Below, in pieces: positions 45,001-48,000 of a DNA stretch of 54,896 bases (positions are counted from its first letter, which is position 1; every line of letters begins with the position of its first letter). The DNA comes from Enterobacteria phage YYZ-2008. Position numbers: made by a program. The stretch lies in sequence record NC_011356, one strand, 5' to 3'.

Positions 45001-48000
45001 CGAATCTCCCAGGACATCAGTACCNGTGATGAAGGTGGTGACGGGAAGGTGGTGGTTATCGGGCGGCAGGCATAAAAGCGAAAAAATCCCGCAGTGACCG
45101 AAGGCTGCGGGAACAGAAAATGAAGATTAACCACAGGGAGTTTTGTTTTTATTGGCCCGAAAAAACTGTAACGCCCGGGAATGATATCTGCCACGGGGGC
45201 GTACAGAAAATGTGAAGAAATTCAGAAATTTTATTCCGTCATGACACAGGCACCCTCCGGGGTGCCTGTCGTTTTTGGGGCATAAACAGATTCAGACATC
45301 AGACATCAGACATCAGACAGGAGAGGGGGACCGAGTGGGTAAAGGTGGCGGCAGGGCACACACGCCGGTTGAGGCAAAGGACAATCTTAAGTCCACGCAG
45401 ATGATGAGCGTGATTGATGCCATTGGTGAAGGGCCGATTGAAGGTCCGGTGAAGGGGCTGCAGAGTATCCTGGTGAACAAAACCCCGCTGACGGACACGG
45501 ACGGTAATCCTGTGATACATGGTGTGACCGCGGTCTGGCGCGCCGGGGAGCAGGAGCAGACACCACCGGAAGGCTTTGAGTCCTCCGGGGCGGAAACCGC
45601 ACTGGGCGTGGAAGTGACGAAGGCAAAGCCGGTGACGCGCACCATTACGTCCGCGAACATTGACCGCCTGCGGGTCACCTTCGGGGTGCAGTCACTGTTG
45701 GAGACCACCTCAAAGGGCGACCGTAATCCCTCTTCTGTCCGACTGCTGATTCAGTTGCAGCGTAACGGTAACTGGGTGACGGAAAAGGATGTCACCATTA
45801 ACGGCAAGACCACCTCGCAGTTTCTGGCGTCGGTGATTCTGGATAATCTGCCTCCCCGTCCTTTTAACATCCGGATGGTCCGGGAGACGGCGGACAGCAC
45901 CTCGGACCAGCTGCAGAATAAGACGCTCTGGTCGTCATACACCGAAATCATCGATGTGAAACAGTGCTACCCGAACACGGCCATTGTGGGGCTGCAGGTG
46001 GATGCGGAGCAGTTTGGTGGCCAGCAGATGACGGTGAACTACCATATCCGAGGTCGCATCATCCAGGTGCCGTCAAACTATGACCCGGAAAAACGCACGT
46101 ACAGCGGCATCTGGGACGGCAGCCTGAAACCGGCATACAGCAACAACCCGGCCTGGTGCCTGTGGGACATGCTGACTCACCCGCGCTACGGCATGGGAAA
46201 ACGCCTGGGGGCGGCGGATGTGGACAAGTGGGCGCTGTATGCCATTGCGCAGTACTGCGACCAGATGGTCCCTGATGGTTTCGGGGGCACAGAGCCGCGG
46301 ATGACCTTTAATGCGTACCTGTCACAACAGCGTAAGGCGTGGGACGTTCTCAGTGATTTCTGCTCGGCGATGCGCTGTATGCCGGTATGGAACGGCCAGA
46401 CGCTGACGTTCGTTCAGGACAGCCCGTCGGATGTGGTGTGGCCGTACACCAACAGTGATGTGGTGGTGGATGATAACGGCGTGGGGTTTCGCTACAGCTT
46501 CAGCGCCCTGAAGGACCGCCACACGGCGGTGGAGGTGAATTACACCGACCCGCAGAACGGCTGGCAGACCTCCACGGAACTGGTGGAAGACCCGGAAGCC
46601 ATACTGCGCTACGGGCGCAACCTGCTGAAGATGGATGCGTTCGGTTGCACCAGTCGCGGTCAGGCCCACCGTGCCGGGCTGTGGGTGATAAAGACCGGAC
46701 TGCTGGAAACGCAGACGGTGGATTTCACGCTCGGGTCACAGGGGCTGCGTCACACACCCGGTGACATTATTGAAATCTGTGATAACGACTATGCCGGGAC
46801 CATGACCGGCGGACGTGTCCTGTCCATCGATGCCGCCAGCCGCACCCTGACACTGGACCGTGAGGTGACCCTGCCGGAGACCGGTGCCGCCACGGTGAAC
46901 CTGATTAACGGCAGCGGTAAGCCGGTGAGCGTGGCCATCACTGCACACCCCGCGCCGGACCGGATACAGGTCAGCACCCTGCCGGATGGCGTGGAGACAT
47001 ACGGTGTGTGGGGGCTCTCCCTGCCGTCACTGCGTCGTCGCCTGTTCCGCTGTGTCTCCATCCGGGAAAACACGGACGGCACCTTTGCCATCACGGCAGT
47101 GCAGCACGTACCGGAAAAAGAAGCCATCGTGGATAACGGGGCGCACTTTGACGGCGACCAGAGCGGCACCCTGAACAGCGTCATCCCTCCGGCAGTGCAG
47201 CACCTGACGGTGGAGGTGAGTGCAGCTGACAGCCAGTATCTGGCGCAGGCGAAATGGGACACGCCGCGGGTGGTGAAGGGCGTGCGCTTCAGTCTGCGCC
47301 TGACCAGTGGAAGCGGTCAGGACAGCCGTCTGGTGACCACCGCCATCACTGCGGATACAGAGCATCGTTTCAGTGGTCTGCCGCTCGGGGAATACACCCT
47401 GACAGTCAGGGCAATTAACAGTTATGGCCAGCAGGGCGAACCGGCCACCACCACCTTCCGGATTAACGCGCCAGCAAAACCCGCCACCATTGAACTGACG
47501 CCGGGGTATTTTCAGATAACGGCGGTACCGGTGCTGGCGGTGTATGACCCGACGGTGCAGTTTGAGTTCTGGTTTTCGGAAAAACGCATCACGAACACGG
47601 CACAGGTGGAAAAATCTGCCCGTTATCTGGGGAGCGGCAGTCAGTGGACTGTCCAGGGAAGCCGGATTAAGCCGGGGACGGATTTCTGGTTTTACGTGCG
47701 CAGCGTCAACCTGGTGGGGAAATCTGCGTTTGTGGAAGTCAGCGGGCAGCCCAGCAATGATGGTGAAGGGTATCTGGAATTTTTCCGGGAAAAAATAGGA
47801 AAACTGCATCTGGCTCAGGGGCTATGGGAGCTGATAGACAACAGCCAGCTTGCGGATGAGATGGCGGAGATGAAGACCACCATCACGGAAACCCGCAATG
47901 AAATCACACAGACGGTCAGTAAAACGCTGGAGAACCAGAGCGCCACTATACAGCAGATACAGCGCGTGCAGAAGGACACAAATGATGACCTGGCTGCGCT

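Follow-up and report, generated by a model that had tools for sequence, protein, structure and literature searches.

The interval between tail genes I and J of Enterobacteria phage YYZ-2008: a probable variant of the PasB/EcOnc22-24 small-RNA cassette, with a lambda-like hairpin and a minor heptamer polymorphism

Hfq-dependent small RNAs (sRNAs) encoded by prophages of pathogenic Escherichia coli are the closest described counterparts of the element considered here. PasB of enteropathogenic E. coli (EPEC) E2348/69 is an 83-nt Hfq-dependent sRNA of prophage PP6 (NC_011601, 1466343-1466261, minus strand), for which the northern probe AATCCCGCAGTGATCGCGGAGCT has been published (Pearl Mizrahi et al. 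2021, PMC8550237). [quoted passage not shown] The seed of PasB has been placed adjacent to the terminator, on its upstream side (Zhu, Shabalina and Storz 2026, preprint). EcOnc22, EcOnc23, and EcOnc24 of enterohaemorrhagic E. coli (EHEC) Sakai appear on northern blots as RNAs of about 85 nt, the stability of which is lowered when Hfq is missing (Tree et al. 2014, PMC4104026). In this article, we analyse the 259-bp interval between tail genes I and J (positions 45076-45334) in DNA of Enterobacteria phage YYZ-2008 (NC_011356); the whole stretch of 54,896 nucleotides is referred to as the window. The I-J interval is very probably a sequence variant of a prophage sRNA cassette, combined with a lambda-like hairpin and a minor repeat polymorphism, and we assign with good confidence a function, that of a regulatory RNA gene, to DNA which was left unannotated in the records examined.

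As judged from the sequences, PasB and EcOnc22-24 are one sRNA family at one locus carrying two names in the literature, which are linked here. The PasB coordinates lie within the I-J gap of PP6, this gap aligns with that of the window, and the PasB probe AATCCCGCAGTGATCGCGGAGCT corresponds to the left hairpin found in variants of the E2348/69 type. The same RNA is matched by the EcOnc22/23/24 probe in Sakai prophage Sp15, where the gap separating the J and I homologues was read in sequence, and EcOnc23 is placed by its coordinates in the J-I gap of Sp14. The coordinates of Tree et al. refer to NC_002695.1, version 2 of which is shifted by about 128 bp; the locus was therefore fixed via the probe sequence. 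In our numbering of fetched loci, the compared segments are L205:940-1030 (Sakai Sp15) and L086:962-1044 (E2348/69 PP6). The two Pas papers contain no statement on the equivalence of PasB and EcOnc22-24: in one of them, EHEC homologues are listed for no Pas RNA other than PasA and PasD, and the term 'EcOnc' does not occur in the other.

The anatomy of the element, its family membership, its conservation, and the allele census given below are established in the present analysis. A covariance model built on 30 family members, none of them sharing more than 88% identity with the window copy, matched the minus strand at 45080-45172 over its full length (model positions 1-93 of 93) with 78.6 bits and an E value of 1.5e-12, the second-best match in the window reaching only an E value of 0.11. 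This second match (26721-26815, minus strand, 20.9 bits) essentially comprises a terminator-like hairpin and a U-tract and is probably unrelated. The PasB/EcOnc22-family gene lies in the I-J gap on the strand opposite to the tail genes, with its 3' end adjoining the stop codon of I, and it shows the order typical of the family, i.e. a single-stranded conserved core followed by a Rho-independent terminator with a U-tract. The terminator (45081-45111, minus strand) is composed of a stem-loop at 45088-45111, with the stem CCCGCAG/CTGCGGG and a loop of 10 nt, and of U6 at 45086-45081, which appears as A6 on the plus strand (45081-45086). The minimum free energy (MFE) of this left hairpin is -14 kcal/mol (z = -3.4 compared with shuffles), and the terminator ends 6 nt past the stop codon of gene I. 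Across 67 sequence variants, its stem is invariant and its loop is variable. No other block of the RNA body is as conserved in the alignment as the core UUAAUCUUC (45122-45130, minus strand); this core is unbroken in most variants including that of the window, carries single substitutions in a few, and is replaced by UUAGUCAAC in one subgroup. The RNA body is predicted to be unpaired, and the conserved core, which stands just 5' of the terminator hairpin and U-tract, is likely the seed. A terminator hairpin with a U-tract is the usual Hfq-binding module. From the sequence, the mature RNA probably has its 3' end at 45081 and its 5' end at about 45158 or 45175. A search of Rfam at gathering and at permissive thresholds yielded no family match anywhere in the gap. 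An earlier examination of this DNA, hereafter the sequence-only reading, had reported a minus-oriented terminator-like hairpin at about 45081-45111; the hairpin is real and terminator-like, but the sRNA gene which it terminates was overlooked. The left hairpin is the 3' end of the sRNA, and that interpretation missed the main content of the insertion: the sRNA gene makes up most of the inserted DNA and occupies the left two thirds of the gap.

Candidate core promoter elements of the sRNA gene (45165-45186, minus strand) were read from the sequence and the alignments. The weak -10 candidate TACAGT (45170-45165) agrees with the 5' end derived from EPEC RNA sequencing (RNA-seq), and a second -10 candidate, TATCAT (45186-45181), is represented in some relatives by TATAAT together with the -35 element TTCACA. 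When 44300-46000 was scanned with the sigma-70 consensus, no promoter emerged, so that the proposed elements depend on the alignment and on the published 5' end. Within a block that is conserved across the pasB cassettes, a sequence resembling a site for the cAMP receptor protein (CRP), TGTGA-N6-TCAGA, is present (45211-45226, no strand assigned). Compared with the CRP consensus TGTGA-N6-TCACA, this site, AAATGTGA-AGAAAT-TCAGAAAT, deviates at one core position of its right half and nowhere in its left half. The motif has one match in the window versus 0.74 expected by chance, which is not significant alone; it is kept in all gap classes with a preserved pasB promoter region and also throughout the units of the cassette array L125 described below. 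Its centre is located at -59.5 relative to the coverage-based 5' end of EPEC PasB, or at -44.5 if the TATAAT-like element serves as -10 region, the reference positions for class I activation by CRP being near -61.5, -71.5 and so on. Spot 42 is repressed by CRP in E. coli K-12. In the published expression data, PasB is higher in a medium in which Spf (Spot 42) is about 5-fold lower. Activation of the sRNA promoter by CRP is a reasonable, circumstantial idea that may apply here, and the analysis names CRP as a candidate regulator of this prophage sRNA family.

The cassette is a constant component of the I-J junction in related prophages. The region is 99.8% identical to that of the Shiga toxin 2 (Stx2)-converting phage 1717 (FJ188381, Pankowvirus) and to prophages of many O157:H7 genomes. 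The I-J gaps of 82 out of 85 loci, namely the 80 closest I homologues in IMG/VR and annotated phage records, were compared and fall into length classes of about 235-259, 340, 851, and 903 bp. Every class opens with an A-run, the stem with its variable loop, the conserved sequence GAAGATTAA, and another A-run; all classes except the 851-bp class containing sodC continue with a TAACGC motif and the strongly conserved block AAATGTGAAnAnnTTCAGAAnTTTTAT, and the representative of the 851-bp class that was read is devoid of the promoter block. The RNA body and terminator of pasB are present in the gaps of all 82 relatives, irrespective of what else these gaps contain. In the 851-bp and 903-bp gaps (L027:2682-3532 and L083:2682-3584), a minus-strand sodC gene for a Cu,Zn superoxide dismutase (PF00080, E value 8e-32) is located beside the pasB cassette; sharing of the gap by both identifies the I-J junction as a hot spot for the insertion of cargo. 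Three pasB-like cassettes are arranged in tandem in the I-J gap of L125 (12174-13080), and arrays of two or three cassettes also occur in L105, L127, L128, L142, L173, L178, L183, and L184. Each cassette of these arrays has its own terminator, and in the single array that was read through, L125, the cores differ between the units (UUAAUCUUC versus UUAGUCAAC) and each unit has the upstream conserved block. The family is hence both widespread and diversifying, with occurrence in hundreds of pathogenic E. coli genomes, 67 variants, and up to three tandem cassettes, sometimes accompanied by sodC.

This constancy of position could also be expected of an RNA that acts mainly in cis, as a local regulator of the tail tip which triggers processing, or blocks the expression of J, upon leaky late transcription. 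The RNA can pair over its whole length with the late transcript at the I-J junction, directly after the stop codon of I, the cassette is retained at this junction in 82 of 82 close relatives even where extra cargo is present, and within the window the RNA body finds no strong complement except its own locus. We consider a predominant action in cis to be unlikely, however, as the homologues were found via Hfq crosslinking and via RIL-seq, the latter with 37 mostly trans partners, and as the RNA overlaps neither the coding sequence of I nor the ribosome-binding site of J, which is about 240 nt away. Pairing with the J leader is no better than that of shuffled sequences, 77% of which performed equally or better, and the arrays of two or three cassettes with differing seeds fit a diversification of trans targets better. 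Base-pairing in trans is the mode of action that we prefer.

The right part of the gap contains an intrinsic-terminator-like hairpin on the plus strand (45246-45276), just upstream of the J leader. It consists of a 10-bp stem (45246-45269) with seven GC pairs and a loop of four, followed by CGTTTTT up to 45276, and thus has a GC-rich stem-loop with a T-run directly after it on the transcribed strand; the corresponding hairpin of the sequence-only reading (45248-45276) is confirmed. With an MFE of -23.1 kcal/mol (z = -5.7), it is more stable than all shuffled versions (0 of 200 as stable). About 13 sequence variants of the hairpin were found among the fetched loci, and in an alignment of 12 of them 97.5% of the cells are paired. 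One pair changes from C-G via U-G to U-A, and two other pairs change only to wobble. This modest and consistent evidence suggests that the structure of the right hairpin is under selection.

In phage lambda, the I-J gap comprises 60 bp (J02459, 15445-15504) and holds a hairpin of its own, CCGCC-TGCG-GGCGG with a T-run, just before the ribosome-binding site of J, so that the previous description of lambda I and J as essentially contiguous does not hold; that DNA is inserted between I and J was recognised correctly, the interval being about 200 bp longer than in lambda. The lambda hairpin resembles the one in the window in having a GC-rich stem and a T-run directly upstream of the Shine-Dalgarno (SD) sequence of J, whereas its stem sequence is different, neither the sRNA cassette nor the heptamer repeat is present, and J starts with ATG. 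In L125, the J-leader hairpin is found after the unit nearest to J only. Since lambda has a hairpin at the same position without a cassette and since only the J-proximal unit of L125 is followed by one, the right hairpin belongs to the J leader and not to the insertion. Sequence and folding indicate that it most likely halts non-antiterminated transcription before J in the lysogen, and it may stabilise the upstream mRNA end.

The two terminators of the gap face outward, plus-strand open reading frames (ORFs) of 31 and 34 amino acids are found at 45120-45215 and 45181-45285, respectively, and one phage record has an entry for a hypothetical protein there. These features could be taken to mean that the gap harbours a small-protein gene or a type I toxin-antitoxin pair with overlapping transcripts and that the plus-strand hairpin ends a second plus-strand RNA or an mRNA. 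Such a gene is extremely unlikely: the ATG of the 31-amino-acid ORF is ACG in many variants, the ORFs are not hydrophobic, neither the scan nor inspection revealed a convincing plus-strand promoter, and in L125 only the unit beside J has the right hairpin, while lambda has a hairpin at this position without any cassette. A plus-strand sRNA ending at the right hairpin was rejected as well, no promoter having been found and the hairpin being absent from the internal units of L125. The searchable portions of the tables from RIL-seq and from crosslinking and analysis of cDNA with Hfq (Hfq-CRAC) contain no plus-strand RNA from this gap.

The J leader downstream of the hairpin carries four perfect TCAGACA units (45292-45319, plus strand; Tandem Repeats Finder (TRF), period 7, 4.0 copies, 100% matches), which are preceded by a degenerate copy and end 15 nt before the GTG start codon, in accordance with the about four tandem CAGACAT heptamers previously assigned to 45286-45319. 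The tract is followed by the SD region GGAGAGGGGG with the GTG of J (45320-45337, plus strand), the SD sequence itself covering 45320-45329. A gapped pattern scan of IMG/VR retrieved 118 leader stretches. Among the fetched loci plus the window (n = 137, mostly viral contigs from IMG/VR), 123 have two units, 5 have three, and 9 have four, and all 43 metagenome matches have two. Synthetic repeat queries were run against 5,426 complete E. coli genomes, of which 587 carry this type of leader: the three-unit query was matched at 95% identity or more in about 7 of the 587, and the four-unit allele was the best match in about 109 of them, mostly O157:H7 among the matches listed. A five-unit query gave no full-length match in the 5,426 genomes, and alleles with five or more units were likewise absent from the viral, metagenome, and species-representative collections that were scanned with gapped patterns. 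The heptamer number thus varies between isolates, with two, three, or four copies, as the sequence-only reading had proposed to check. Alleles with at least three units occur in at least three flanking backgrounds, and the unit number is constant within each background despite up to 8 substitutions in 660 nt. As the alleles are fixed within backgrounds, the sequences point to a repeat that is polymorphic through rare slippage and lineage-bound, not hypervariable.

It had been suggested that the repeat serves as a slipped-strand switch for J, and in a broader form the tract would be a phase-variable contingency element in which translation of J is tuned as TCAGACA units are gained or lost, e.g. 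via a longer unstructured standby platform for ribosomes between the hairpin and the SD sequence. The occurrence of two, three, and four copies across at least three backgrounds, the position of the predicted single-stranded tract directly beside the SD sequence, and the weaker GTG as start codon of J are in agreement with such a role. The allelic diversity is low, though, with two to four units only and none above four in the 587 E. coli genomes with this leader, and the number is tied to the background in spite of the flanking substitutions and is two in every metagenome copy. The tract is located upstream of the SD sequence, so that the spacing between SD and start codon is unchanged; it is outside the J ORF, whose reading frame is left untouched, outside any promoter spacer, no promoter having been found around it, and not between SD and start codon. 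In partition-function folding with one to eight units, the predicted accessibility of the SD sequence and start codon stays at 0.57-0.63 in a short and at 0.52-0.57 in a long sequence context and is thus the same whatever the copy number. The stretch 45277-45340 is less structured than 199 of 200 shuffled sequences, in agreement, by the folding model, with an open region for ribosome loading that need not have a particular length. A contingency function of the heptamers is therefore quite unlikely in our view, and the sequences lend no support to a switch by slippage that acts on the host-range gene J.

Taken together, we propose that the I-J interval is composed of three modules. Module 1 would be an sRNA moron on the minus strand, comprising about 45165-45230 as regulatory and promoter region, an RNA of about 78-95 nt, and its own terminator, the RNA being made up of an unstructured A/U-rich body, the UUAAUCUUC core, and the terminator hairpin with the U-tract. 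By analogy to its relatives, the window sRNA would be made in the lysogen, be stabilised by Hfq, and base-pair in trans with host and prophage mRNAs; we infer the expression of the window variant by homology to the EPEC and Sakai RNAs. Module 2, the hairpin with the T-run before the ribosome-binding site of J, would stop non-antiterminated transcription and be read through by Q-modified RNA polymerase. Module 3 would be the unstructured, C/A-rich J leader, in which TCAGACA normally occurs twice and was expanded to four units in the phage 1717 lineage. The expansion presumably took place by rare replication slippage, and the models predict the repeat to be neutral, with no consequence for the translation of J.

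Several points weigh against this proposal. The two -10 candidates imply different RNA lengths of about 78 or 95 nt, and the promoter, which has a poor -35 region, is unlike those of EPEC and Sakai, so that the window variant could be weakly expressed or silent. Covariation in the right hairpin comes from a single pair altered on both sides, and its score was equalled or exceeded by 14 of 500 shuffles. The folding models omit effects of standby sites and of S1-dependent translation, and both the terminator role of the right hairpin and the neutrality of the repeat are derived solely from sequence and thermodynamic prediction. A different arrangement of the same parts would be a single regulatory unit formed by the sRNA cassette and the J leader, in which the Hfq-bound antisense RNA, responsive to the state of the host and possibly activated by cAMP-CRP, sets the level of J obtained from leaky or early late transcription and the hairpin and the expandable heptamer leader tune it. 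We regard such a unit as very improbable. If a unit of this kind existed, copy-number alleles such as the four-unit allele in the Stx2c phage 1717 would be adaptive. The model of three separate modules is the one we prefer.

The borders of the interval are defined by the two tail genes. On the left, the tail assembly gene I (44395-45075, plus strand; from the ORF list) is assigned by the Pfam domain PF06805 (Lambda_tail_I, E value 3.9e-16), its counterpart in phage 1717 is annotated as tail component, and its stop codon is TAA at 45073-45075; position 45026, 50 nt ahead of the stop codon, is an ambiguous base N. On the right, J, the gene for the tail tip and host specificity protein (45335-48814, plus strand), contains the FNIII-A_GpJ and Phage-tail_3 domains. 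Its GTG start at 45335, already recognised in the sequence-only reading, agrees with the annotation of phage 1717 and is supported by the N-terminus of lambda J (MGKG...HTP.EAKDNL), and the description of a 259-bp interval with two hairpins and heptamers proved right to within a few bases. In phage 1717, a gene annotated as phage antirepressor (L001:1-230) lies just upstream of K, where the K-I-J block of tail genes begins. This gene, too, is probably a moron, and transcription from it would head toward the hairpin before J.

Additional regulatory elements were found elsewhere in the window. STnc100 (21201-21414, plus strand, 190.7 bits) and AgvB (21416-21475, minus strand, 56.6 bits) form a convergent sRNA pair, an arrangement described for the moron site at pR' of O157 prophages. 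An antisense module of the P1/P7 type is located at 16437-16635 (Rfam isrK, C4 antisense RNA with a1/b1 target), and the thermoregulator element of lambda cIII is matched over its full length at 7553-7611 (minus strand, 88.5 bits). A 162-bp tandem repeat at 33770-34362 (3.7 copies, 97% identity, TRF score 1053, with a 75-bp inner substructure) presumably reflects repeated domains in a structural gene.

Among the closest known relatives of the window element is PasB. Both are located in the I-J gap, antisense to the tail genes, and end just past the stop codon of I; they share the terminator stem CCCGCAG/CUGCGGG with its U-tract, a core of the UUAAUCUUC type, and the upstream conserved block, and the covariance match extends over the full length. 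The window RNA is about 75% identical to PasB, from which it diverges in the 5' half, the terminator loop, and the core promoter. EcOnc22, EcOnc23, and EcOnc24 (Sp15, Sp14, and Sp11) occupy the same gap on the same strand, and their probe lies within the homologous RNA body. The Sakai Sp15 copy resembles that of the window also in the presence of the right hairpin and of the leader with GTG and heptamers, but its heptamer occurs twice, and its 5' body and promoter are not those of the window copy. As in other prophage morons, e.g. the convergent sRNA pairs (AgvB/AsxR) downstream of pR' or sodC in tail regions, an autonomous unit of promoter, gene, and terminator stands between late genes and would be expressed from the prophage; in contrast to these, the cassette in the window carries an sRNA as cargo which opposes the late operon and lies inside the tail-tip block, not downstream of pR'. 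With simple sequence repeat contingency loci of Haemophilus and Neisseria, and with variable host-range systems such as the Mu G and P1 C inversions and the diversity-generating retroelement (DGR) of Bordetella phage, the heptamer tract shares the position by a host-range gene and the differences between isolates. It differs from these systems in having only two to four units, lineage-bound alleles, and no predicted effect on expression, and in that neither a recombinase nor a reverse transcriptase is involved.

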